In this document: positions 3,630-34,601 of the stretch, in pieces
How the letters are laid out: each line of letters starts with the position of its first letter
Position numbering within the stretch: position 1 is the stretch's first letter
IMG/VR virus record: IMGVR_UViG_2526164629_000027
Strand: one strand, 5' to 3'
DNA: 37,247 nt
DNA from: a virus
Taxonomy: Duplodnaviria; Heunggongvirae; Uroviricota; Caudoviricetes
Notes under the pieces: model-generated
Databases searched by the model: none
The model's input: the letters and a program-made list of their open reading frames with translations, nothing else
Told to the model about the DNA's origin: nothing
Program-made: the position numbers and the translations under genes

Positions 3630-3872
3630 ATGGGCAAAGAATATAAAACTCTCATTAACAAAGCACTTGAACGATTTTATTTTCGCTTAAGTGCATCAGG
3701 CGCTCATGCTGAACATGCAGCCCGTGACTCATTGACCAGGGCAATCCGGAGTTTGTATGACGTTGCTTTTTACGCTGATGATCTGGATGCACTGAACGAA
3801 CTTTCCGAGCTGATCTGTGCCGCAGAATGCGGGGAACACATTGAACCGTATAAGCTGGGGAATATCGCATGA
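3630..3872 (+). CDS. Hypothetical early protein
   Basis: 80 aa ORF, tightly packed in the operon. Confidence 0.5.
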   Translation: MGKEYKTLINKALERFYFRLSASGAHAEHAARDSLTRAIRSLYDVAFYADDLDALNELSELICAAECGEHIEPYKLGNIA

Positions 3873-3982: not shown

Positions 3983-4115
3983 TAGCTTAAACAAAACACC
4001 AGATTAAACCCGAAAACCTGAAAACTATCCGCATTCGCGGAGGTATTCGCACACGTAAATAACGGAGATATAAAATGAACGCAAAAGAAAAAATATTATC
4101 AATACATTAAAAATA

Positions 4116-10214: not shown

Positions 10215-11282
10215 TCAAGTTCGCTGGGTGGCGTTTTCTGGTAGAGGAAAACGAATATTGATCATAACTCCAGGAAATCGAGCATCCTTCATACGCTTAA
10301 GATAGTTGCGATCCGGTTCAGATTCAAGCCCTACATCATTAAAAGGGTAAGTAAAAATGTCACTTTCCTCGTCATTAACCAACCTTTGCTTTAATTTATA
10401 TGATCCATCAAAGTTAATATGAGTACTACCAGATATTAAAGTCATTTTTATCCCACCTTTAATATCTCTTCCCATTTTTTTAAGATTATCATGCATATCT
10501 TGAAATAACTTCAATAATTCAATTGTTCCGGTGCCAGAACTGTCAGTTTCTTTCTCGTTTTTACAACTCACCCGCCCTTGCAAGGCCGCTACTGTTGTTA
10601 ATCCTTCCTTAAACATACCCTTTTTCTTAATATGCTTATTTATGTATGGATTAACTTGTTGACTTAATGAAAAATGATCCTCAGGTAAATTATCAAAAGT
10701 TTCGCTGATAGTTTTCCCAAAATTGAAAACAGCCAACTCACATATGGGGTTTCGTACGTTATTATTAACAAAACCTCTCAAATACCAGCGTGGGCGTTGC
10801 TCTAACCCACAATGCCGCTCCGCATTATCAAGGAGTTCCCCCATGCAGGAAGTTAAATGCTTTTCTGCCTCATGTACAAGTTTTAAATTATGATCATTTA
10901 AGCATTCGTTTATGTATGCGGTAAATTTTTCAGCAGTGACATTTTTTCTGTCATGGGCAAAGGCAGAAGCATTCTCCTTTCCGATACTATCAGCAGAGAA
11001 GATTCGTTTCTTCGGATTCGCTTTTTTCGATGCTTCAGTAGAGTCCAGAACTTTACCTGGTGCAGCATTACTAATCTCTTTTACAAGCCCGACATCCCTG
11101 ATAATTTCAAGATACTGTTCATCTTTAGGGTAGATACCATTAATCTGAATCATCGTATCTTTGAAATTTATATTACTTTGCCTTGCTGCTGTAAGAGCAA
11201 CACCTAATAGACACTCAAGACCAAGACAGTGTTTTTGTTTTCTTGTAATCAAAAATATATGATTTCCATTTACCTCTTGCAA
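10215..11282 (-). CDS. Cargo gene b: GHKL (histidine-kinase-like) ATPase-domain protein
   Basis: 355 aa as listed (TTG start); the first in-frame ATG is at 11153; N-box-like GELLDNAERH (ExxxNAxxH) and Gly-rich DSSGTGTIELL segment; AT-rich. Confidence 0.55.
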   Translation of the reverse strand: MQEVNGNHIFLITRKQKHCLGLECLLGVALTAARQSNINFKDTMIQINGIYPKDEQYLEIIRDVGLVKEISNAAPGKVLDSTEASKKANPKKRIFSADSIGKENASAFAHDRKNVTAEKFTAYINECLNDHNLKLVHEAEKHLTSCMGELLDNAERHCGLEQRPRWYLRGFVNNNVRNPICELAVFNFGKTISETFDNLPEDHFSLSQQVNPYINKHIKKKGMFKEGLTTVAALQGRVSCKNEKETDSSGTGTIELLKLFQDMHDNLKKMGRDIKGGIKMTLISGSTHINFDGSYKLKQRLVNDEESDIFTYPFNDVGLESEPDRNYLKRMKDARFPGVMINIRFPLPENATQRT

Positions 11283-11688
11283 TTAATTTTGTGGCAGCAC
11301 TAATAAATAGCAGAGATTTCTCTGGATTGTCATATAAGTCAAAATATTTAGGTATTAATATCTTCTCTGCGTCACGACGAAGAATTGATGAGTCATACTC
11401 TTTTATAATCGATATATTTTCAATGAACGTAGCGACTTGGTTTTGGACAGGAGTTGTTTCATCGGAAAAACGAAGACTACCATTTTTCTCTTGCGCAGGC
11501 TTTTTTTTCTTAGCTCTCTCAACGCTACGAAGAAATCGCAACCATCCACGTAAAAAGGTTCTTTTAGAATCTTCTTTATTGATTTTTTTCATTTCCAAAT
11601 GTTCCTGCAAAGTTAACGTAGCCCACAAGGCGCTAAGTATACTTTCTGCTATATTTTTTTCACTATACAAATGCACAATAGTGCACAA
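11215..11688 (-). CDS. Cargo gene a: small basic protein, or N-terminal part of gene b if the two are one frameshifted ORF
   Basis: 157 aa from TTG, or 125 aa from the ATG at 11590-11592; Lys-rich; overlaps gene b by 68 nt in the -1 frame across several A/T runs. Confidence 0.4.
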   Translation of the reverse strand: MCTIVHLYSEKNIAESILSALWATLTLQEHLEMKKINKEDSKRTFLRGWLRFLRSVERAKKKKPAQEKNGSLRFSDETTPVQNQVATFIENISIIKEYDSSILRRDAEKILIPKYFDLYDNPEKSLLFISAATKLIARGKWKSYIFDYKKTKTLSWS

Positions 11689-12730: not shown

Positions 12731-12755
12731 CAGCCCCATCACGGGGCTGTTTTTT
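12731..12755. terminator. Bidirectional intrinsic terminator shared by the convergent orphan gene and portal gene
   Basis: Hairpin cagcccc-atcac-ggggctg followed by TTTTTT on the plus strand and preceded by an A-run (a T-run on the minus strand). Confidence 0.65.
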
Positions 12756-13758
12756 CATCAAGAAGAGCATAAGAATTAAAACGGATCACCTCTTCGCCAA
12801 GCCAGTCATTGATGTGCTTCATGGCCTCCATAACGGGCATCAGCTCGTTAATTGCATAAACCCGCGCGGCCTTCTCCACATCACCAAACGCACTTTTTTC
12901 GCCCGGCATCGCCCCCATCAGTTGCGGCGGAACACGGTGCGCAGCCAGCACATCATCACGGGATGCCGCCTTAACATTCATGAACTCATCTTTTGCGGTG
13001 ATCTGCTGGAACGGCAAAATTTGCACCCCCTCTTTGCCCCCGTTGGGCGCATGAATGAGCACGTTTTTAAATGCACCACTACCACGTGCACCCTGTAATG
13101 TTTCTTTCAGGGAGTCCATGCTTTCGCGGTTTACCTGCGCTGCACCGATGTAGATGATGCACCCGGCGTGGGATCCGTTGTCGTAATACAGTTTTCTGAA
13201 CATGTCCGCCGAATGAGACAGGCTGGCCGAGAGTAATGCGCCGAGATATTCCGGCATGCCGTAGATTTCCTGGTTAATATCCGGATTCATCAGGTGGCAC
13301 ACTTTGCCAGGGCGAAACTGAAACGCGTCCTTGCCATCCTGCACATACCACCATGATTCAAGATCGCTTCCGCGTCGCATGTATTTCGCCAGTGCGTGCC
13401 GTAATTTAAGCGGTTCGCCGAGCATATTGCTTCGGAGCTCAAGGTATGCGTTACCGAACACAAACCAGTCCAGCGCCAGCGCCGAGAAATCCTGCCGGGA
13501 AAGCAGCGGGTGCGGAATATAGCAGCCGAGCAATACATTGCGCTTAAAGTAAAGCGCAGACTGATGCCAGGACGTTTGCCGGGCGGCTCTTGCCAGACCG
13601 TACCAGTCCACCGGGGTTTCATACCACCGCCCGTTATCAGCACAGTACATATTGTCCAGCAAATCATGCCCGGTCAGGCGATAAGGACCATCAAAAGTGA
13701 ATGCACTGAGCGACGATTCTTTCCTGAGCGCATCAGCGAGATCAATGCGTGAACTCAT
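12739..13758 (-). CDS. Q: Portal protein (P2 gpQ family)
   Basis: 339 aa from the ATG at 13756-13758 (the listed ORF extends upstream from a TTG); size and position (downstream of terminase, divergent from the capsid operon) match P2 Q. Confidence 0.85.
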   Translation of the reverse strand: MSSRIDLADALRKESSLSAFTFDGPYRLTGHDLLDNMYCADNGRWYETPVDWYGLARAARQTSWHQSALYFKRNVLLGCYIPHPLLSRQDFSALALDWFVFGNAYLELRSNMLGEPLKLRHALAKYMRRGSDLESWWYVQDGKDAFQFRPGKVCHLMNPDINQEIYGMPEYLGALLSASLSHSADMFRKLYYDNGSHAGCIIYIGAAQVNRESMDSLKETLQGARGSGAFKNVLIHAPNGGKEGVQILPFQQITAKDEFMNVKAASRDDVLAAHRVPPQLMGAMPGEKSAFGDVEKAARVYAINELMPVMEAMKHINDWLGEEVIRFNSYALLDEKTAP

Positions 13759-13783
13759 GCGCACTTTTTTATTTTTCTGCTCA

Positions 13784-15535
13784 TCAGAACTCCATAACCG
13801 TGAAACGCTCGTTTTCTCCTTCGCCGCCAATTGGTTCGTTAATGACAGCAAGCATGGTTGCCCACGCAAGGTCGCCGTGGCTGATCCCCCTCGCGCGGTC
13901 CGTTTCGTAAGTGATAAAACCGCCCGGTGTTTTCACCTTACGCACGGCGTTAAAGGCCGCGACCAGCTCGCGTTCGGCGCGATCGTATTCCCACCGCCCG
14001 GCACGCATTATTTGCAGCATTTTCAGTACCAGCGACCGTTTTGATGACAGCGTGAAGGTGTACGGAATAGCAGCAGGGAAAAACCGTTTCACTATCTGAT
14101 AAACAGCCTCCCCGTTCCCGCCCGTCACATCAATGCCGATGTGTTCCACGTTGTAGCGACACGTGAACTCTTCAATGACTCTGGCCTGTTCTTCAAACTC
14201 CAGCCCCTGAACGCGTCGCGTCTCCACCGTTCGAAAACGGCCACCAGGAACAGCCGGAGGAACCACCACAGACACAGCGCCGCTGTCGCCGTTGCCACTG
14301 CTGCCGTTTGCGTCATACCCAATCCATACCGGACGATTCCCCATCGGGCGGGGAGCAAAAGGTTTCCAGTCTTTCCAGTCGTCGTATCCGTCAACACCGC
14401 AGCCAATCAGGATATTCAGGTTAAATGCCGATTCCCCTTCGCGGACAAACTCACACATATAGAGATTGAGGAACTCGTCTTCGGTATTTTCATCACGAAT
14501 TTCGTCGATATCGGTGTGTTTCCAGCCGTGATTAACCACATCTTCCAGCGTGACAATTTGCCGCCACGTCCGGTCAGGGCAGATAAGCCCGTTATGCAGC
14601 GTATTCCAGTCCACAGAAAAACGCTGGCGTTTATGCGTGGCCTTTTTCTCGTTCCAGCGGTCGCCGTTCCAGTAGGCGTATGCTTCGTGCGTTTCGGTGG
14701 ATGGCGTGGAGAAGTAGGTGCGCCGCAGTCCGCTGAGGGTTGCCATAGCGCCAGCCACCTTGCGCAGTTCAGCAAAGCGACTGACCCAGAAAAATTCATC
14801 AAAATAAAAATTGCCCGTATAGGACTGCGCCGACGCAGCAGAAGTGCCGAGAAAATGCAGCTCTGCGCCGTTGGAGAGGATGATTTTATCGCCCCCTTTC
14901 AGCTCCACATCAACTTCAGCCGCAGCCTTCTGAATAATGCTTTTAAACTGGAACGCCTGACGACGCGACGCAGACAAAAAAATCTGGTTACGCTGGTAAG
15001 GTTGCGCCACATCGTCACGCAGCGCCATCAGCAGAGCTTCCTGTGCAAAATACCAGGTCGCCCCAATCTGTCGGGATTTCAGGATCATCCTGTTACGTAT
15101 CCCGGCTTCCCTGCAAAGGGTCAGGGAGTCAAACCAGCCCCGCTGATGCCACTCCAACCTGCTGATGATTTTTTCCCGCAGTGCGGAAATCTGTTCCGGC
15201 GTGAAATGATTTTTGAGTTTTTTCGCCCGGCCTTTCTTTCCTGCGGCCATCACATCCGGATGGCCATCATGCAGCTTTTTAAGCTGCCGGGTCAGCAGGT
15301 CTATTTCCTTAAAGTCACCGCCTGTTTTATTCTGTTTTTCAGTAAGCTGGATGAGGCGCGCATCGATGGACTGCGTGACACGCTGCACGGGTGGCGTTTC
15401 ATCCCACTGGTCGCGTTTTTTCCACGCATAAATCGTGTTCGGGTTTATTCCCATCAGACGTGATATTTCTGCGGGCGGATAACCCTGCCAGTAAAGTTGC
15501 CGCGCACGCTGGCGCACAAAAGCGTCCTGAATCAT
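13784..15535 (-). CDS. P: Terminase large (ATPase) subunit (P2 gpP family)
   Basis: 583 aa; N-terminus MIQDAFVRQRARQLYWQGYPPAEISRLMGINPNTIYAWKKRDQWDE matches the P2 gpP family; divergent from the scaffold/capsid operon. Confidence 0.9.
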   Translation of the reverse strand: MIQDAFVRQRARQLYWQGYPPAEISRLMGINPNTIYAWKKRDQWDETPPVQRVTQSIDARLIQLTEKQNKTGGDFKEIDLLTRQLKKLHDGHPDVMAAGKKGRAKKLKNHFTPEQISALREKIISRLEWHQRGWFDSLTLCREAGIRNRMILKSRQIGATWYFAQEALLMALRDDVAQPYQRNQIFLSASRRQAFQFKSIIQKAAAEVDVELKGGDKIILSNGAELHFLGTSAASAQSYTGNFYFDEFFWVSRFAELRKVAGAMATLSGLRRTYFSTPSTETHEAYAYWNGDRWNEKKATHKRQRFSVDWNTLHNGLICPDRTWRQIVTLEDVVNHGWKHTDIDEIRDENTEDEFLNLYMCEFVREGESAFNLNILIGCGVDGYDDWKDWKPFAPRPMGNRPVWIGYDANGSSGNGDSGAVSVVVPPAVPGGRFRTVETRRVQGLEFEEQARVIEEFTCRYNVEHIGIDVTGGNGEAVYQIVKRFFPAAIPYTFTLSSKRSLVLKMLQIMRAGRWEYDRAERELVAAFNAVRKVKTPGGFITYETDRARGISHGDLAWATMLAVINEPIGGEGENERFTVMEF

Positions 15536-23947: not shown

Positions 23948-24007
23948 ATGAGTACCACAACACGAAAATTTAAAACCGTTATCACCGATACGGGTGCAAA
24001 AAATTAG
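23948..24007 (+). other. H: 5' fragment of the tail-fibre gene H (19 codons) cut off from the main ORF by a frameshift in an A6 run
   Basis: ATG at 23948 gives [19 protein letters not shown]-stop; with one extra A in the run at 23998-24003 the frame continues as [28 protein letters not shown], which matches the P2 gpH N-terminus. Confidence 0.6.
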
Positions 24008-24051
24008 CTCAGGCAGCCGCGCCAGATGGTAAGCCTGTCCGCCTGACTCAT

Positions 24052-26409
24052 ATGGCCGTGGGCGACGGTGGCGGCGCGTTGCCCACACCAGACAGTAAGC
24101 AGACCCGTCTGGTGCATGAGGTGTGGCGACACACTGTTAATCGCGTCATCCTGGACGCAACACATCAGAACCGCATTATTGCGGAGCTGGTTATTCCTCC
24201 AGAAACGGGCGGATTCTGGATCCGGGAAATTGGTGTGTTTGATGAGCACGGCGATTTAATCGCGGTGGGCAATACTGCCGAAAGTTACAAGCCAGCCGTT
24301 GCCGAAGGGTCCGGACGTGCACAAACATTTCGCACCATTCTGACCGTATCCAGCACTGCCACTGTGGCGCTTACCGTGGATAACACCATGGTGATGGCCA
24401 CAGTGGATTACGTGGATAACAAACTGAAAGAGCATGAACAGTCACGATGTCACCCGGATGCCTCGCTGACCGCAAAAGGCTTTGTTCAACTCAGTAGCGC
24501 CACTAACAGCGATTCTGAAACGCTGGCTGCAACGCCGAAAGCGGTTAAGGTCGCGTATGATCTTGCTAACGGAAAATATACAGCGCAGGATGCCACAACA
24601 GCGCGAAAAGGCCTTGTCCAGCTTAGTAGTGCAACCAACAGTACATCTGAAACGCTGGCGGCAACGCCAAAAGCAGTTAAAGCAGCCAATGACAATGCGA
24701 ATAGCAGGGTGCCATCTAACCGAAAAGTTAACGGAAAAGCACTGACTGCGGATATAACATTAACGCCGAAAGATATTGGTACTTTAAATTCAGTAACGAT
24801 GTCTTTCTCTGGCGGGGCTGGGTGGTTCAAACTGGCTACGGTTACCATGCCACAAGCGAGTTCCATCGTTTACATCGCATTGATTGGTGGCGCTGGTTAC
24901 AACGTCGGTTCCCCACATCAGGCAGGCATTTCAGAACTGGTTCTACGAGCAGGCAATGGAAACCCCAAAGGAATTACCGGGGCTTTGTGGAAGCGTACAG
25001 CCGTCGGATTAACGAATTTCGCCTGGATCAACACATCCGGCGATACATATGATATTTACGTTGAGATTGGCAATTATGCGACGAGTGTAAATATCCATTG
25101 GGATTGTACTGCAAATGCGTCAGTTTCTGTTTATACCTCGCCAACATATTCAGCGAGTAAGCCTTCCAGCGTTACCTATGGTGTTGTTTATACGATGTAT
25201 AGCTCACATCAGAAACCTACACCATCAGATATTGGAGCACTGCCAACAACCGGAGGAACAGTTTCAGGTCCGTTGTCTGTTACAGGTGGATTAACTGGTT
25301 CATTGAATGGTAATGCAAGTACAGCCACGAAATTGCAGACGGCAAGATCTATCGGTGGAGTTGTTTTCGACGGTTCTGCAAATATTAACCTTCCAGGTGT
25401 AAACACTACGGGTAATCAGAACACCACTGGTAATGCTGCAACTGCTACAAAACTTCAGACTGCAAGAAAAATATCCGGTGTTCCATTTGATGGTTCTACT
25501 GATATCACTTTAACCGCCGCGCATGTGGCTGCTTTTGCCAGAAGGGCAACGGATACATATGCCGATGCGGATGGTGGCGTTCCCTGGAATGCCGAATCAG
25601 GCGCTTACAATGTCACCCGCTCTGGCGACACCTATATTCTGGTTAACTTCTATACCGGAGTCGGAAGTTGCCGGACCTTGCAGATGAAGGCACATTACAG
25701 AAATGGAGGTCTGTTCTACCGTTCCTCAAGAGATGGCTATGGTTTTGAGGAAGACTGGGCAGAAGTTTATACCTCGAAAAATCTTCCACCAGAAAGCTAC
25801 CCAGTCGGCGCACCAATCCCGTGGCCATCAGATACCGTTCCGTCTGGTTATGCCCTGATGCAGGGGCAGACTTTTGACAAATCTGCATACCCGAAACTTG
25901 CAGTCGCTTATCCGTCAGGCGTGATCCCTGATATGCGTGGCTGGACTATCAAGGGCAAACCTGCCAGTGGTCGTGCCGTATTGTCTCAGGAACAGGACGG
26001 CATTAAATCGCACACCCACAGCGCCAGCGCATCCAGTACTGATTTGGGGACGAAAACCACATCGTCGTTTGATTACGGTACTAAAACGACCAGTTCATTT
26101 GATTACGGCACAAAAACCACAAATAGCGCAGGAGCTCATTCACACAATATACCTGTTGGTCACACTGGCGCGGGGAATGGTGTATCAGCCGGTTATAACG
26201 CTGCGTTAGGTACTGGTACCACGTCGAGCGCAGGAGGGCATGCTCACAATGTACATATCGGTGCCCATAACCACACTATCGGCATTGGTGCTCATGCCCA
26301 TTCTGTCATTATTGGTCCCCACGGACACACCATCACCGTTAATGCTACGGGGAACGCAGAAAACACCGTAAAAAACATCGCATTTAACTATATTGTGAGG
26401 CTTGCATAA
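24052..26409 (+). CDS. H: Tail fibre protein (P2 gpH family); intact ORF from an internal Met, see frameshift fragment upstream
   Basis: 785 aa; N-terminal region MAVGDGGG...IAELVIPPE...AESYKPA matches the conserved P2 H domain; duplicated [21 protein letters not shown] motif; C-terminal tandem repeats and His-rich HxH repeats. Confidence 0.85.
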
Positions 26410-26804
26410 TGACATTCAGAATGAGTGAACAATCACGGACCATAAAAATTTATAATCTACTGACCGGAACCAATGAGTTTATTGGTGAAGGTGATGCATA
26501 CATTCCACCTCATACAGGTCTGCCTGCAAACAGTACCGATATTGCCCCGCCAGATATTCCGGCTGGCTTCGTGGCCGTTTTCAACAGTGATGAGGCATCG
26601 TGGCATCTCGTTGAAGACCATCGGGGTAAAACTGTTTATGACGTGGCATCAGGGGACTCGTTATTTATTTCTGAACTCGGTCCATTACCGGAAAATGTTA
26701 CCTGGTTGTCGCCGTATGGAGAGTATCAGAAGTGGAACGGCACATCCTGGGTGAAAGATGCAGAAGCAGAAAAACTGTTTCGGATAAGGGAGGCGGAAGA
26801 ATAA
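26409..26804 (+). CDS. G: Tail fibre assembly chaperone, N-terminal part (P2 gpG/Tfa family)
   Basis: 131 aa; position immediately after H; its conserved C-terminal Tfa region is in another frame. Confidence 0.7.
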
Positions 26805-26986
26805 AAAACAGCCTGATGCAGGTAGCCAGCGAGCATATTGCGCCACTTCAGGATGCCGTAGATTTGGATATTGCAACGGAGGAAGAGGCATCGTTACTGG
26901 CTGCATGGAAGACATACCGGGTATTGTTGAATCGTGTTAATACAGCGGTAGCAGCGGATGTTGAGTGGCCAGTCGCCCCACAATAA
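26732..26986 (+). CDS. Tail fibre assembly chaperone, C-terminal conserved region in a different frame (frameshifted continuation of G)
   Basis: Translation ...[61 protein letters not shown] matches conserved Tfa C-termini; no credible independent start. Confidence 0.5.
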
Positions 26987-27029: not shown

Positions 27030-27635
27030 CTATTTATACAATACAACACCGCTCTTTTTAGTTATATATGTGCAGTTCGATGGTATATCTTTATTTATAA
27101 AAGACATTGCACCTATTTTTACATTATCCCCAATTTTACGTGATAATCCAATGATGCAACAATTAGCTCCGATATCAACGTTACTACCAATTTTTACTCT
27201 TGAACCAGGCATGTCACCATCTATCTGTCCAATGGTAGTATTCTGTCGTAACACCAGATTTTCACCAGCATCAACAGCAAAATGAACAACAATTCCAGCA
27301 TGATGGGGAATTGTTAACCCTTTTCCAATATTTGCGCCCAATCCAATTTCACAACCAAATTTGTTAATTATTTTACTGTTCAACTTTTTGGCTGCTTTCT
27401 TATGTAATTTATTACCATTAATATACATTTCGTTAGCCAACCGCCACCAGAAAAGGAAATTCCGGTTACGCTGTTTTTTCTCTCTTAAAAGCCTCCAGAT
27501 ATCCATACGTTTCCGCCGAATTACTTCATATTTCCAGAAGTTTTTTAAATTAGTAGAGTTCCCAAATAAAACAAAGTGAATTGCCATTAAGTAAGACAGC
27601 ACGATAATCTCCTTAATTATTATTTCAGACCACAC
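27030..27635 (-). CDS. Hexapeptide-repeat acyl/acetyltransferase (left-handed beta-helix family), cargo gene
   Basis: 201 aa (GTG start; alternative ATG at 27587); hexapeptide-like repeats (IGANCCIIGLSRKIGDNVKIG, IGQIDGDMPGSRVKIGSNVDIG); markedly AT-rich. Confidence 0.75.
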   Translation of the reverse strand: MWSEIIIKEIIVLSYLMAIHFVLFGNSTNLKNFWKYEVIRRKRMDIWRLLREKKQRNRNFLFWWRLANEMYINGNKLHKKAAKKLNSKIINKFGCEIGLGANIGKGLTIPHHAGIVVHFAVDAGENLVLRQNTTIGQIDGDMPGSRVKIGSNVDIGANCCIIGLSRKIGDNVKIGAMSFINKDIPSNCTYITKKSGVVLYK

Positions 27636-27758: not shown

Positions 27759-28253
27759 TCAGAGCAGCCCCTTAACTGAGCTGGCCGCGCTATTAAGGGA
27801 TGATGTCACCTTATCTTTGAAGCCGGACAACATATCGCTGAACGATGAGGATTGCAGGCGCTCCCGCAAATCCTCATCACAGCGTTCAAGAGTCAGTGAA
27901 AATTCTATCTTTTTCGCTTTACCGTAGCGATCAAACTCGGAACGGGTCGTATTCGTTTCGGTCAGGACATACATGCCGTAAATCTGCCCGACGCCATCAA
28001 TCAGAGGCCAGGGCCGTCCTGTATACGCCTGCGTGGTCAGCAGAGACAGCGACACTTCGCCACCTGTAATTTCAGGATAAAGCACACCAGAAAGAACGAT
28101 GCGGTCATCACCTGCACCGATATACTGCCAGCTTGCTGAACGGTTAACGCGTTCATTTTTCACATGCCGCCAGCTTTTATTTTGCTGTAACTGCTGATGC
28201 GGCAATGTGCGCAGCTCAAAAACAAACATGCCGTAGATCATCATCATGGCCAT
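27759..28253 (-). CDS. U: Tail protein U
   Basis: 164 aa; immediately downstream of the tape-measure gene on the same strand. Confidence 0.75.
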   Translation of the reverse strand: MAMMMIYGMFVFELRTLPHQQLQQNKSWRHVKNERVNRSASWQYIGAGDDRIVLSGVLYPEITGGEVSLSLLTTQAYTGRPWPLIDGVGQIYGMYVLTETNTTRSEFDRYGKAKKIEFSLTLERCDEDLRERLQSSSFSDMLSGFKDKVTSSLNSAASSVKGLL

Positions 28254-28259
28254 GACTCC

Positions 28260-31103
28260 TCAATCTTTATCGCAAAAACTGCCACGCCCGGCACGGGCGC
28301 GCCGTTCCATTTCTGCCCTGACCATTTCACCGACCAGTTTCGCCAGTTCGCGGGGATTCTGCGTAACAACGTTATGCAGATGAACATGAATTTCACCGCC
28401 AAATCCGGAGACAACAGGCTCCCGGTTACGGGAAGTTGCAGGAACTGATGCCACTGGCGATCGTATGGCCTCCGCCACCGGGCGGGAGCTGGCCGCAACA
28501 ACAGGGACCAGCGCCGGAGGCAGAGGAGTCGGGACCACGGGTGTGATGTTGATTGCGGAAGCAGGCTTACTGACCTGCGCAATCTTCCGCTCCTGCCACT
28601 CCCCACGAACGGCAAGTGCGCGGGGCAGGTTCTTAAAGACAATATCGCCGGGGCCAATACGTTTTTTCGTCTCATCAACCAGCTTACCTGTGTTATCAGC
28701 AATTTTGCTGAGTCTGCGTAGCGTACCGGTATTGCTGTCTGTGAGCGGTTTGTTGTCTTTGGGTTTATCGCCTCCGGTGCCATTGCCATTTTCCGCAGAC
28801 TTCGGCGGATTGATTTTCGCAATGTCTCCCTGAAACAGAGCAACCTTGTCCTGAAGAATGGCCGCACGCTGTGCGTCTTCGATTTTCTTGCGCGCCCTTT
28901 CCGCTTCATCCGGAAGCACACCGAGCTTTTCAAGTATCCACGCCAGCGTATCCAGCAACATTTTTGCAGGTGTAAGAACAAGTTGTAACGCACCGCCAAG
29001 AACGTTACCGAATATCTCGCCAGCACTGGTACATTTATCCAGCGTTTCCTTGCTGGACTCCATCGGTGACAGCAGCGATTTAAACCAGTTAAACACCTGG
29101 CTTATCCCGCTTCCGATTGCGTCAAAAACAGGACCAAACCGTTCAAAGGTTTCGCGCAACGGGGTCAGCCTTTCCATAATCCCGCTGAACACCCCGGCAA
29201 AAAATGCCCTGATGGGATCCCAGTATTTCCAGATAAGAACGGCAGCTCCGGCAAGCGCAGCCACGATAAGACCAACCGGACTGAACAACGCCCCGATAGC
29301 GCCTCCCAGTAAAGAAACGGAACCCGTCACCATTCCCCATAGTGCTGGCAGAACCCTGACAGCATTCATTGATCCGGTCAGGAGGGAAAAACCAAGACGC
29401 AGTTTTGCCAGCGGGCCAGCAAGCACACCAATAGCCAGCGACAACGAGCCAACCGTTGCAGTCATTGCCAGCAGTGCACCGCCTGCAATCAGTAGCTGGC
29501 GCGTCAGTGCGGGATGGGCCTGCGCCAGCGCCGTCACCTTTGATACCACTCGCGTGAGCCACTGCGTGACAGAACGCAGCGGACCGTCAATCAGATCTGC
29601 AATGCGGATGCGCAACCCTTCCCATGCACTGCTGAGTGATTTCAGATCGCCGTCAAGGTTGTTGGCCATAACCTTTGCCGTGCGTTCAGCCTCACCGCGC
29701 GCGCCTTCAAGTTCTTTTCTCAGTTTGGGTAAGGAGCCGTTACCTGCCGCATCAACGAGGGCCATAAATGATGTGAAAGCCTCTTCTCCTGCAATGTCCT
29801 TAAAGAACGATACCCGGTCAACTTCCCCGTATTTGCGGGTAGCTTTATAAAGGTCAGCCAGCACATCCTCCATCGGGCGCATTTTGCCCCCGGCATCCGA
29901 GACAGACACGCCAAGCTCTTTCAGCGCCTCTGCTGCCGCCTTTGGCGGTGATGCCAGACGAGCCAGGCTGGCACGCATTGCCGTACCAGCATCACTCCCC
30001 CTGATACCCATATTCGCCAGCACGCCCGCCATCGCTGCGGCCTGCTCCAGCGATATTCCCAGCTTACCCGCCACCGGACCTGCATATTTCATGGTTTCGC
30101 CCAGCGCGCGAAGGTCAGTGTTAGTACGGGTAAACGCTGCTGTAAGCGTGTCACCGACCCGGTCCATCTGGTCAGCGGAGAGGCCGAACTGCGTCAGGAT
30201 ATTTGAGCCAATATCCGCCGTCTCGCCAAGGTCCATACCGCCAGCCGTTGCCATGCTCAGCACGCCCGGAAGCGCAGCCTGAATGGCCTGCGGTGTGAAG
30301 CCAGCCATTGCAAGAAATGCCTGCCCACTGGCGGCATCGCCTGCGGTGAACTGCGTTTCAGAGCCAAGTTTTAACGCCTGCTCACGCAGCGCCTTAAACT
30401 GCGGGCTGTTTTTGTCGATTCGCGTCAGTGCCTGAACGCGGGACATCTCTTTCCCGAACCCGATCGCAGGCTGCAAAAAACGCCCGGCAGCATAGCCGCC
30501 CGCCGCTGCCGCACCAATTGCCAGCGCACCACCTGTTTTCAGTTTTTCCGCTGTTTCCTGCGCGCGCGAATACCGCTCACGCGCCCGCGTTACACGCGCA
30601 AGCGCCTGCCGTTCGCGTTCAAGCTGGTTGTTGTATTGTTCGGTGCGTCTGATGGCCTGCTGGATGGTGTTATCGCTGCCTGTCAGGGAAATGCCGTGGC
30701 GTTTCAGCTCTCCGCCAAGCTCCCGCATTTTCTGAATTTCCCGTGTGCGCGATTCATTCAGGCGTTCAAGCCGGGTGCTTAACTGCTGCATCAGCTTTTG
30801 TTGTTTTTCGCTGAGCACTGTACCCGTGCGTTGTAACTGATTAAGGGCGTTAAGCTGGCGTCGTGCTTTCACGATGCCCGCATCCGCTTTACTGACAGCG
30901 TCGCGGGCGCGCTCAAATGATCGCGCCTGACGCTCGAGATTTTTGATCGCCCCCTGCGTTCGCTGGATGGAGTCACCAAACTGCCCCATCAGGCGGCGGG
31001 CGTTTTCGGCAGGCCGGGTCAGCCTGTCAACGGCGCTGAAAGCGACCCGGATATCAAGAGTCTTCATTGTCTGCATTCCCGCTGCGAAGTGCCGCCCGCT
31101 CAC
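28260..31103 (-). CDS. T: Tail tape measure protein (P2 gpT family)
   Basis: 947 aa; long helical/coiled N-terminal region, Gly/Ala-rich hydrophobic middle; true start may be the ATG at 31076 or 31067. Confidence 0.9.
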   Translation of the reverse strand: MSGRHFAAGMQTMKTLDIRVAFSAVDRLTRPAENARRLMGQFGDSIQRTQGAIKNLERQARSFERARDAVSKADAGIVKARRQLNALNQLQRTGTVLSEKQQKLMQQLSTRLERLNESRTREIQKMRELGGELKRHGISLTGSDNTIQQAIRRTEQYNNQLERERQALARVTRARERYSRAQETAEKLKTGGALAIGAAAAGGYAAGRFLQPAIGFGKEMSRVQALTRIDKNSPQFKALREQALKLGSETQFTAGDAASGQAFLAMAGFTPQAIQAALPGVLSMATAGGMDLGETADIGSNILTQFGLSADQMDRVGDTLTAAFTRTNTDLRALGETMKYAGPVAGKLGISLEQAAAMAGVLANMGIRGSDAGTAMRASLARLASPPKAAAEALKELGVSVSDAGGKMRPMEDVLADLYKATRKYGEVDRVSFFKDIAGEEAFTSFMALVDAAGNGSLPKLRKELEGARGEAERTAKVMANNLDGDLKSLSSAWEGLRIRIADLIDGPLRSVTQWLTRVVSKVTALAQAHPALTRQLLIAGGALLAMTATVGSLSLAIGVLAGPLAKLRLGFSLLTGSMNAVRVLPALWGMVTGSVSLLGGAIGALFSPVGLIVAALAGAAVLIWKYWDPIRAFFAGVFSGIMERLTPLRETFERFGPVFDAIGSGISQVFNWFKSLLSPMESSKETLDKCTSAGEIFGNVLGGALQLVLTPAKMLLDTLAWILEKLGVLPDEAERARKKIEDAQRAAILQDKVALFQGDIAKINPPKSAENGNGTGGDKPKDNKPLTDSNTGTLRRLSKIADNTGKLVDETKKRIGPGDIVFKNLPRALAVRGEWQERKIAQVSKPASAINITPVVPTPLPPALVPVVAASSRPVAEAIRSPVASVPATSRNREPVVSGFGGEIHVHLHNVVTQNPRELAKLVGEMVRAEMERRARAGRGSFCDKD

Positions 31104-31217
31104 GCCAGCTAACCACTTCGCCGGGCGTCATCATGAAGATTTCGGCGGGCGACCAGTTAAAAATGGCGGCAATATCCGCCACAAAGTCTTCTATGTACTC
31201 AAAGCACACAACCGTGA

Positions 31218-31583
31218 TCAGGCTTCCGTCGCCTGTTCGTTCTTCCCGCCAGAGTCCGCACCGCTCAAAAAATTTACGGCAACCACACATAACTGAATAA
31301 AGTCACGGGATGCCATTTTTTTGATCGTCACTTCATCCAGTCGCGGTGATGTCACGCGTGACAGCAGCGTAAACATGGATTCCGCTTTCAGATTCAGCAC
31401 ATCAGACAGCGACAAATCTCGCAGAGATCCAGCCTGCTCAATAGCCCCGGTGATCTCCACATACGTGATTTTTTCGCCGCCTCGCTCAATTGGTTGGGTA
31501 AGTTTTACGCCACGCTCACTGGTTTCTTTCACAGTGTCAGTAACTACCGTGTTTTCGGTATCGATGTTTTTCGTCTCTTTCAT
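31218..31583 (-). CDS. E: Tail assembly chaperone E; E+E' extension to 31054 by programmed -1 frameshift
   Basis: 121 aa with SD AGGAG; contains the slippery heptamer T TTT TTG in frame (VNFL); the -1 frame continues as ...FFERCGLWREERTG... to a stop at 31054, overlapping the T start. Confidence 0.8.
   Translation of the reverse strand: MKETKNIDTENTVVTDTVKETSERGVKLTQPIERGGEKITYVEITGAIEQAGSLRDLSLSDVLNLKAESMFTLLSRVTSPRLDEVTIKKMASRDFIQLCVVAVNFLSGADSGGKNEQATEA
31266..31272 (-). promoter_or_regulatory. Programmed -1 ribosomal frameshift slippery site (TTTTTTG) for E/E'
   Basis: Heptamer read as AA-T TTT TTG in the E frame; the same heptamer is used by P2 E/E'. Confidence 0.75.
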
Positions 31584-31637
31584 CAGGAAACTCCTTTCAG
31601 TCAGAGGCGACGCACTGCGCCGCCTGCATATTACTTA

Positions 31638-32150
31638 TCAACCAAGCCCAAGCGCGGAACGGATACGGTCAGGCACAATGTCCTTGCCGTCCTTCCGGTA
31701 AATGAAGTTCAGCAGGTCAATCTCCCACAACGGGCGATCGTTAACACTCAGCTTGTAGTAGGTGTTTTTAATGGCGTAAGTGTGTGATGTGGCTTCGCCC
31801 TGTTTGGCTTCCCCCATATCAATTTCCGTCACACGTCCGCGCATCTCGATTTCATACAGATCGCTTTCTGCATCGGTGTAGTATTCACCCGCAAAACGCA
31901 GCAGCGTGCCGTCAATCGTGCCGCCATATTTAAGGAACAGCGCACGAACAGCTCCCCCCATAACAAAACTCGCATCAAGCGCGGAGTCGTCCAGACCGAG
32001 ATCAATACTTACCGCCCCCATCATGCCACCACCACGATAGCTGTCGGTTTTGCGCGTCAGTTTAGGCAGGGTGACGGACGTCACCTTACCCACTTCGTTT
32101 TCACCATCCACAAACAGCGTAAAAAAGCGAAGATGTTTTGGTACAGCCAT
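31638..32150 (-). CDS. FII: Tail tube protein (P2 gpFII family)
   Basis: 170 aa; follows the sheath gene with start/stop overlap. Confidence 0.85.
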   Translation of the reverse strand: MAVPKHLRFFTLFVDGENEVGKVTSVTLPKLTRKTDSYRGGGMMGAVSIDLGLDDSALDASFVMGGAVRALFLKYGGTIDGTLLRFAGEYYTDAESDLYEIEMRGRVTEIDMGEAKQGEATSHTYAIKNTYYKLSVNDRPLWEIDLLNFIYRKDGKDIVPDRIRSALGLG

Positions 32151-33334
32151 CAGACACCTCCCAGCACCGCAAATGCGGGACCAAAGAATTCATCAGTAAA
32201 CGACTGGTAAAGCTCCATGTCTTCCAGCGGGGGAACAGGCGTATATTTGTAGCGAATACGCACACGCCCCTGACGTAAATTCGTGGTGCCGTTATCCACC
32301 ACGTCATACCAGCACGACGCCCCAATCAGTTTCCCGGCAGTAACCAGTGAATCCAGTTTTGCCCTGATGGCACTGATAACATCTTTCACGTTCGCAGGCG
32401 TCAGTGGACTGTCGATGGTTTCAAACTGCGCTTCCGCAATTGAATCAGCCAGCACCTGTGCGGTTCGGGTATACACCTCAAAGATGTAGGCGTTCGTTTC
32501 CGGTGTGCGGTTGCCCCAGAAGCGGAACCCGTTGCGACGAATAATGGTCGTGATTTCTTTGTTGTTGAGGCTGTTGGCATCGCTGTCTTCGGCCTGCAAC
32601 GACCAGAACACATGCCTGGACATCCCCAGCACATTTTTAACCGGAACGTTGGACAGTGATTTGTGCCATCCCTGCTCATGGTCAATGTACGCACGAAGGC
32701 CGCACGCATAGGCAGGCGCGGGGAACGTTTCGTTTTTGCCACTTTTCGGGTTGTAGGCGATGAAGTCCGGCCATAAGAGCATCACCTCACGTTCGTTGAA
32801 TTTCTGGCGGTAGGTAATCACCTCAGCCATCGTGTTACAGCCGTGACATGAGGCATACACAAACGCGCGCAGTTTACCCGCAATCACGCACAGGGATTTT
32901 GTCACCGCCTCCGTGTCCAGCTCCGGCGCGGCCAGAATACGCGGACGGTATCCGATGCTTTCATCCTGCTCTGCAACAAGCAGCGCATACATCCCCGTAT
33001 AGCTGCCGTCAGATTCAGAACCACCGATAACCAGTTGATCCTGCGTCTTTCCGTCTTCTTCTTTGTGTTCAGCCACGCGAACGACGATCACCTTTGTGCT
33101 CACCTGGTCTGCGATGGCCTTAAGCGCACGATAAAGCGTCCCCGTTGTCCCGCATTTTCCCAGCACGTCATTGACGCGGGTCAGCAGTGTGGGCTTGTTC
33201 AGCGGGAACAGCTTCGCGTCCGCATCATCCGCCGTTGCCACGATACCGATAACGCTGGAATCAACATCGTTAATCGCTGTTACCAGGTCGGTATTTTCCG
33301 TAACACGGGCACCATGAAAACGAGTTTCACTCAT
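32150..33334 (-). CDS. FI: Contractile tail sheath protein (P2 gpFI family)
   Basis: 394 aa; size and position match P2 FI. Confidence 0.9.
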   Translation of the reverse strand: MSETRFHGARVTENTDLVTAINDVDSSVIGIVATADDADAKLFPLNKPTLLTRVNDVLGKCGTTGTLYRALKAIADQVSTKVIVVRVAEHKEEDGKTQDQLVIGGSESDGSYTGMYALLVAEQDESIGYRPRILAAPELDTEAVTKSLCVIAGKLRAFVYASCHGCNTMAEVITYRQKFNEREVMLLWPDFIAYNPKSGKNETFPAPAYACGLRAYIDHEQGWHKSLSNVPVKNVLGMSRHVFWSLQAEDSDANSLNNKEITTIIRRNGFRFWGNRTPETNAYIFEVYTRTAQVLADSIAEAQFETIDSPLTPANVKDVISAIRAKLDSLVTAGKLIGASCWYDVVDNGTTNLRQGRVRIRYKYTPVPPLEDMELYQSFTDEFFGPAFAVLGGV

Positions 33335-33491: not shown

Positions 33492-34601
33492 ATGACCGAT
33501 ACCACCATGCAATTGCTCAGTCAGGGCACAGACCCCGTGAAAATGCCGGATTTTGATATTCTCGCGGAGGGTAAAACGCTGTCAGGCGTGGCAGAGCGCC
33601 TGATGAGCCTGTCACTGACCGACAACCGGGGATTTGACGCGGACCAGCTCACCATCACGCTGGATGATGCGGATGGTCAGTTGCAGCTACCGCCACGGGG
33701 CACGCGCCTGACGGTTCTCATTGGCTGGAAAGGAGAACCGCTGACAGAAAAAGGCACTTACATTGTTGATGAAATCGCTCACGAAGGACCGCCGGACAGG
33801 CTGACTGTTTCAGCCAGAAGCGCAGATTTTCGGGATGAATTTAACGTTAAACGTGAGGTGTCCTGGCATGATGTGACCGTTGAGCGTGTGGTATCCGCCA
33901 TCGCTCATCGGTATGGTCTGAAACCGCAAATCAGCGAAATGCTGATGGATATCGAAATCGACCACGCCGACCAGACCGAAGAAAGCGACATGTCCTTCCT
34001 TACGCGCATGGCGGAAATGCTGGGCGCAATCACCACGGTAAAAAGCGGTAATCTGTTATTCATTATGCCAGGCGGTGGCGTGAACGCACAGGGCCAGCCG
34101 TTGCCATCGTTCGCCATCACGCGCAGCAGTGGCGATCGCCATCAGTTCCGCATTGCTGACCGCGAAGCGTATACGGGGGTACGCGCTTACTGGCTTGATC
34201 TTAATTACGGGAAAAAGAAAAAAGTCAGCGTGAAACACCGCAAACCGCCAAAACCCAAAAAGGAGAAAAGCAGCAGCCGTGAAGGTGATTATATGGAAGG
34301 CGCGGAAGGCAATGTGTTTGTGTTACGCAAGACTTATCAGAACGAGCAGGCAGCAAGACGCGCAGCGGCGGCAAAGTGGCAGCAGCTACAACGCGGAGCC
34401 GCATCATTCTCCATCACGCTGGCATGTGGTCGTGCAGAACTCTACCCCGAAATGCATGGCACGGTAACAGGATTTAAAAGCGAGATTGATAATCAGGACT
34501 GGATTATTGCAAAAGCCGAGCACACCATCGATAACAGCGGCTTTACCACGCAGCTTGAGCTTGAGGCAAAAATCCCGGAATGGATAGCAGAAACAGAGTG
34601 A
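33492..34601 (+). CDS. D: Tail protein D (late control gene D family)
   Basis: 369 aa from the ATG at 33492 with SD GGAGGG; the listed ORF begins 132 nt upstream at a non-ATG start. Confidence 0.8.
   Translation: MTDTTMQLLSQGTDPVKMPDFDILAEGKTLSGVAERLMSLSLTDNRGFDADQLTITLDDADGQLQLPPRGTRLTVLIGWKGEPLTEKGTYIVDEIAHEGPPDRLTVSARSADFRDEFNVKREVSWHDVTVERVVSAIAHRYGLKPQISEMLMDIEIDHADQTEESDMSFLTRMAEMLGAITTVKSGNLLFIMPGGGVNAQGQPLPSFAITRSSGDRHQFRIADREAYTGVRAYWLDLNYGKKKKVSVKHRKPPKPKKEKSSSREGDYMEGAEGNVFVLRKTYQNEQAARRAAAAKWQQLQRGAASFSITLACGRAELYPEMHGTVTGFKSEIDNQDWIIAKAEHTIDNSGFTTQLELEAKIPEWIAETE

Follow-up and report, generated by a model that had tools for sequence, protein, structure and literature searches.

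In phages P2 and 186, the tail fibre protein (gpH and K, respectively) is encoded after gene I and before the tail-fibre assembly gene, and combines an N-terminal PF12571 domain with PF03406 repeats. A slippery run in a tail gene, at which a –1 shift gives a longer product, is described for lambda G/GT and P2 E/E′ (PMC5009743). Homopolymer contingency loci and the fibre switching of the Mu Gin/P1 Cin type offer a further parallel, inasmuch as expression of a host-range gene might, in principle, be turned on and off by a repeat tract within it. A parallel of another kind is provided by the under-call errors of 454-type sequencing, which produce 'pseudo-pseudogenes'. Here, we compare with these systems a P2-like prophage in which the homologue of P2 gene H is interrupted, as deposited, by a frameshift at a homopolymer.

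The window, by which we mean the whole 37,247-nt stretch of DNA that was analysed, is contig AIGY01000034.1 of assembly GCA_000250175.2, a 2012 draft of E. coli DEC11D from the DEC collection; three of the loci retrieved (L034, L040 and L051) are slices of this contig and are 100% identical to the window. It comprises a complete P2-like prophage, beginning exactly at the integrase gene and ending in host DNA (tRNA-Leu/Cys/Gly and pgsA). As deposited, H opens at an ATG at position 23948, three bases past the stop of the baseplate gene I, and runs for 19 sense codons through an A6 homopolymer (23998–24003) to a TAG at 24005–24007 (fragment 23948–24007, + strand). The remainder (24004–26409, + strand) lies in the –1 frame, which is open from 24004 to a stop at 26407–26409; the first ATG, GTG or TTG in it is the ATG at 24052, which would give a product of 785 aa, and a Shine–Dalgarno sequence was sought upstream of this ATG and none was found. 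When one A was added to the run, a single ORF of 820 aa resulted. Both the layout and the repair had been described in the first-pass annotation of this DNA, which reported a 19-codon opening followed by a stop and a continuation in another frame and stated that one further A at 23998–24003 restores a continuous P2-like protein, and both were confirmed by re-reading the sequence and its translation.

The repaired protein matched PF12571, PF03406, PF12604 and PF07484. The PF12571 match was full-length, extending over residues 6–153 and profile positions 3–149 of 150 (Pfam, E = 7e-54), and was followed by PF03406 repeats, gp37_C and Collar. In the deposited sequence this domain does not lie in one reading frame and is split at codon 19; the break therefore falls inside the conserved N-terminal domain. 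Residues 1–179 of the repaired protein aligned in one piece with the P2 tail fibre protein (67% identity) and with K/H of phage 186 (62% identity). The gene shares with P2 gpH and 186 K its position between gene I and the tail-fibre assembly gene, as well as the N-terminal PF12571 domain and the PF03406 repeats. However, its C-terminal receptor-binding part differs, being of the gp37_C/Collar type with His-rich repeats, and as deposited it also differs by the interruption at codon 19.

The first-pass annotation had left three alternatives unranked: a homopolymer error in the assembly, a genuine inactivating mutation that makes the prophage defective for adsorption, and a slippage-prone switch that controls fibre production. 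Our comparisons favour the first, and the other two were not supported. Judged from sequence comparison, the A6 run in H is probably a homopolymer under-call in the DEC11D draft (we put the probability at roughly 0.87), in which case the real prophage would carry A7 and an ordinary intact H of 820 aa.

This reading is based chiefly on copies of the same prophage in other genomes, comparison with related prophages having been one of the checks suggested in the first-pass annotation. Such clone-mates were found by look-up of the terminase and tape-measure proteins, which are nearly strain-specific for this prophage. At least four other assemblies contained this prophage at the same chromosomal site and with the same host DNA alongside, with 0–1 substitutions over 19–33 kb, and all of these carry A7 and an 820-aa H. 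They are AIGZ01 (L057/L060), which follows directly in accession order within the project, GCA_026221475.1 (L050/L059), GCA_007647635.1 (L061) and GCA_052646055.1 (L062); several Logan assemblies likewise carry the same prophage beside the same flank. Because identical prophage copies in other genomes all have an intact H, A6 is likely to be an artefact. The copy in GCA_026221475.1 has an intact H whose protein is 100% identical to the repaired one. More widely, A7 was found in 35 of the 36 homologous loci that were fetched, as well as in all clone-mates.

The closest of these comparisons also showed that the H lesion does not stand alone. Aligned with the copy in GCA_026221475.1, window positions 3788–37247 contained 0 substitutions and six 1-nt gaps, at positions 4088, 11232, 11238, 13772, 23998 and 26800; in 6/6 cases the window was the shorter sequence and the gap lay in an A/T run. 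Against AIGZ01 (both loci), GCA_007647635.1 and GCA_052646055.1, the window showed 0–1 substitutions over 19–22 kb each. The H lesion is accordingly one among six window-specific 1-base homopolymer shortfalls in the prophage, the other five being absent from the first-pass annotation, and the genes disrupted by the six gaps together number five: H, those for tail-fibre assembly and the portal, and two hypothetical genes. The proportion of A/T runs that were under-called was 2/17 for 7-mers, 2/38 for 6-mers, 1/93 for 5-mers, 0/224 for 4-mers and 1/662 for 3-mers, and none of the 617 G/C runs was affected; two run starts in this tally were adjusted manually. As a rough density, this corresponds to one apparent false frameshift per 5–6 kb in the region, mostly in A/T runs of at least five bases.

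The same lesions were seen at the level of genes. When all annotated genes of two relatives were translated and searched against the window, about 45 were intact and three were broken. The broken ones were H, the gene for tail-fibre assembly and, near 11237 on the – strand, a hypothetical gene of 459 aa. Two more lesions emerged from nucleotide alignment, one at codon five of the portal gene (13772–13776) and one at 4088–4093, within a small hypothetical gene. The tail-fibre assembly gene (26409–26986, + strand) has AA instead of AAA at 26800–26801, leaving ORFs at 26409–26804 and 26732–26986 in place of the 192-aa protein of relatives, and the repaired protein is 100% identical to that of the copy in GCA_026221475.1. 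In the portal gene (12739–13786, – strand), the run at 13772–13776 is one base short (A6 to A5 on the coding strand), so that the ATG at 13784 now hits a stop after 9 codons, and the longer run was present in all 19 other loci; the source annotation starts the gene at a GTG at 13764, giving 341 aa compared with 348 aa in relatives. The 459-aa hypothetical accessory gene (10215–11592, – strand), carried by only approximately 21 complete E. coli genomes, is broken at 11232–11241, where two neighbouring runs are each one base short (T5-G-T4 compared with T6-G-T5 in relatives). Finally, the hypothetical gene with A6 at 4088–4093 (+ strand) has A7 in L003 and in the copy in GCA_026221475.1, and its protein is shortened from 138 to 106 aa. 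This A6 is common to the window and the sibling draft AIGZ01, and is either a systematic error common to both drafts or a real change common to both.

Some comparisons were tried and set aside. A tally of window-private substitutions and indels against a distant panel gave 33 'private' substitutions, which was uninformative because the panel was 2–5% diverged, and it was superseded by the clone-mates. Genomes of the L004 type, whose right flank is 100% identical to that of the window, were rejected as an isogenic control because a different P2-like prophage lies inside; in L004 itself (NZ_CP027766.1, 25441–29283, strain 2013C-3342), this prophage occupies the same yecA/tRNA-Leu attachment site, and its W and H genes are both annotated as 'frameshifted'. 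The gene S protein proved too common (339 blocks) to serve as a strain-specific marker. We also observed a near-identical prophage remnant, truncated by IS3/IS30, at a different chromosomal site, in the pdxB-flk region of NZ_CP027591 and NZ_CP023673 (L001/L002). It keeps W to FI, part of D, ogr and hok, and its tail-fibre region is 99.5% identical to that of the window, with H and the tail-fibre assembly gene intact.

To see how common the deposited alleles are, 76-nt queries, each with one lesion at its centre, were run against 5,426 complete E. coli genomes. The exact A6 76-mer of H occurred at 0 of 799 places in these genomes, and the exact lesion 76-mers of the tail-fibre assembly gene, the portal gene and the 459-aa gene were likewise absent (0/468, 0/1174 and 0/22, respectively); the best matches were always one or two bases longer. 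In IMG/VR, the ratio of A6:A7:A8 at the H site was 1:26:0. The sole A6 contig there (L005) is a different prophage, with approximately 150 substitutions, and its draft contains three extra 1-base insertions in G/C runs inside gene S; the draft of L005 is therefore itself error-laden. Look-up of exact proteins gave the same contrast between truncated and intact products: the 788-aa H and the 341-aa portal protein were each found on 1 contig, compared with 110 contigs for the repaired H, 190 for the intact tail-fibre assembly protein and at least 1000 for the intact portal protein. Matches to the 785-aa H were rejected as independent A6 alleles because the contigs start 33 nt upstream of the ATG at 24052 and are contig-edge truncations, and 3/5 matches to the 131-aa fragment of the tail-fibre assembly protein were likewise truncated at contig ends.

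Evidence on the reads themselves was provided by Logan assemblies. In that of the DEC11D run SRR096436 (L035/L064), the prophage showed 0 substitutions relative to the window and the same AA in the tail-fibre assembly gene. It also had T6 for T7 at 31316, breaking gene E, and A5 for A6 at 34218, breaking gene D, whereas at both positions the longer run is found in the deposited contig and in 12–17 other loci. The A5 at 34218 recurs in the sibling draft AIGZ01 and in its run SRR096435, with A6 in twelve other loci; gene D is accordingly split (246 + 123 aa) in L060, L064 and L065, that is, in the sibling DEC draft and both 2010-era Logan assemblies, and is intact in the window and 12 other loci. 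The lengths of long A/T runs thus cannot be trusted in these read sets. H itself is fragmented in the Logan assembly of SRR096436, and neither the 785-aa nor the 820-aa product was found on any Logan contig. The deposited consensus is not uniformly poor, since it has the right length for T7 (31316) and A6 (34218), both of which the k-mer assembly got wrong.

These observations resemble 454-type under-call errors in several respects. The window departs from its clonal relatives in run length only, always towards fewer bases and more often in longer runs. In one place, two neighbouring runs each fall short, and separate assemblies of the same reads have their miscalls at other runs. The shortfall at 26800 is atypical in that it sits in a 3-mer. 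We infer that a flow-based (454-type) chemistry, in which long homopolymers are counted short, produced the reads; the under-count would then have passed into the consensus where A/T runs are longest. A change from T6-G-T5 to T5-G-T4, as in the 459-aa gene, is a routine under-call for flow chemistry; if mutational, it would represent two separate events. Similar unexplained frameshifts have been reported in other genomes of the same DEC project (PMC5592225).

We considered the possibility that the DEC11D prophage truly lost one A from A7 by replication slippage and that H is a null allele. The deposited sequence does read A6, homopolymer frameshifts are a common route of prophage decay, and frameshifts in W and H are annotated in other P2-like prophages at the same attachment site, as mentioned above. 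Genuine replication slippage, like under-calling, favours long runs. Furthermore, the AA in the nearby tail-fibre assembly gene was reproduced in the independent assembly of the strain's own run, although ten other loci have AAA, so that at least one lesion is read-supported; this change, in a 3-mer, may be a genuine mutation, and if so it would raise the prior that the prophage truly decays, in which case A6 could be genuine as well. On this account the 19-aa peptide would simply end, and the 785-aa remainder, whose ATG at 24052 has no Shine–Dalgarno sequence, would have neither a ribosome-binding site nor the initial 35 residues of the baseplate-attachment domain; particles, if produced, would be fibreless and unable to adsorb. 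However, the window differs from its clone-mate by six single-base deletions, all in one direction, and by zero substitutions over 33 kb, a pattern that is very improbable as decay because real decay should leave substitutions too. In E. coli mutation accumulation, indels arise at approximately a tenth of the substitution rate, and perhaps at a fifth in mismatch-repair mutants; at these rates, even a mismatch-repair mutator would be very unlikely to acquire six indels without a single substitution. Two events in neighbouring runs would be needed for the lesion in the 459-aa gene, the reads demonstrably cannot be relied on where A/T runs are long, and the A6 allele of H is a singleton, with A7 and an intact H in all clone-mates. 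We therefore regard an adsorption-defective prophage as unlikely, and homopolymer error as the better account of the A6 run.

Another reading is that the A tract is functional, either as a reversible phase-variation switch or as a site at which full-length H is made from A6 by –1 ribosomal frameshifting or transcriptional slippage, at a low fibre dose. The sequence A_AAA_AAT at 23998–24004, in the frame of the ATG at 23948, is an X_XXY_YYZ heptamer with the stop TAG directly after it, and shifting by –1 at this point yields precisely the normal H protein. The A-site codon of this heptamer, AAU, differs from AAG, the codon of the efficient type in E. coli. Phages do employ programmed –1 shifting in tail genes (PMC5009743), and the window itself contains an example: the genuine P2-type E/E′ slip site, T_TTT_TTG at 31272–31266 (– strand), beyond which the –1 frame stays open as far as the E′ stop. 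The T7 at 31316–31322 was rejected as the E/E′ slip site, because it encodes two lysines in frame (Lys-Lys) and the actual site is the T6G approximately 45 nt downstream. The E/E′ genes belong to an FI-FII-E-E′-T-U tail block (27759–33334, – strand) that is opposite in strand to V-W-J-I-H-G and D-ogr; in P2, all these tail genes share one direction. This inverted FI-U block, which parts D from its usual operon, is common to every E. coli relative examined (L001, L003, L004 and L039–L062).

The two-frame layout of P2 E/E′ is conserved in all relatives, whereas at H every relative has a single in-frame ORF; no frameshift is therefore needed for H. The two-ORF layout of the deposited H was found in no relative, A7 being in frame at 35/36 loci and in all clone-mates. 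Tract-length polymorphism, as expected of a contingency locus, was not seen among the relatives checked: A8 was absent from IMG/VR, exact A6 was absent from the 799 places in complete genomes, and the clone-mates all have A7. The folding of the 93 nt downstream was no better than that of shuffled sequences (z = –0.74; 48/200 shuffles equal). A tract of 7 A's also falls short of the length usual for contingency loci or for efficient transcriptional slippage (PMC5009743), and the five other run shortfalls in the prophage cannot all be switches. Fibre switching of the Mu Gin/P1 Cin type does occur in related prophages (L003, L042–L044 and L047), by means of an invertible alternative-fibre segment with its recombinase. 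The window prophage has no such invertase segment. In its place, between the tail-fibre assembly gene and U, lies a serine-acetyltransferase-like accessory gene (27030–27602, – strand, 190 aa), in which the Hexapep match is faint. Taken as a whole, a slippage switch or programmed frameshift at this tract is very improbable, and slightly more so the specific version in which a real A6 at codons 18–19 is a reversible off state with a trickle of H supplied by leaky –1 frameshifting or transcriptional slippage.

What the locus means depends on which of these readings is correct. It would be of wider interest only if the tract were a switch, and a real A6 acting as a null allele would merely add one more defective prophage. 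Under the homopolymer under-call that we favour, confirmation from the reads is needed before the apparent pseudogenes of this draft, and probably those of the sister DEC drafts, are interpreted as prophage decay, lost function or recoding. There would then be no biology particular to this site, and H would be an ordinary intact P2-type tail fibre gene.
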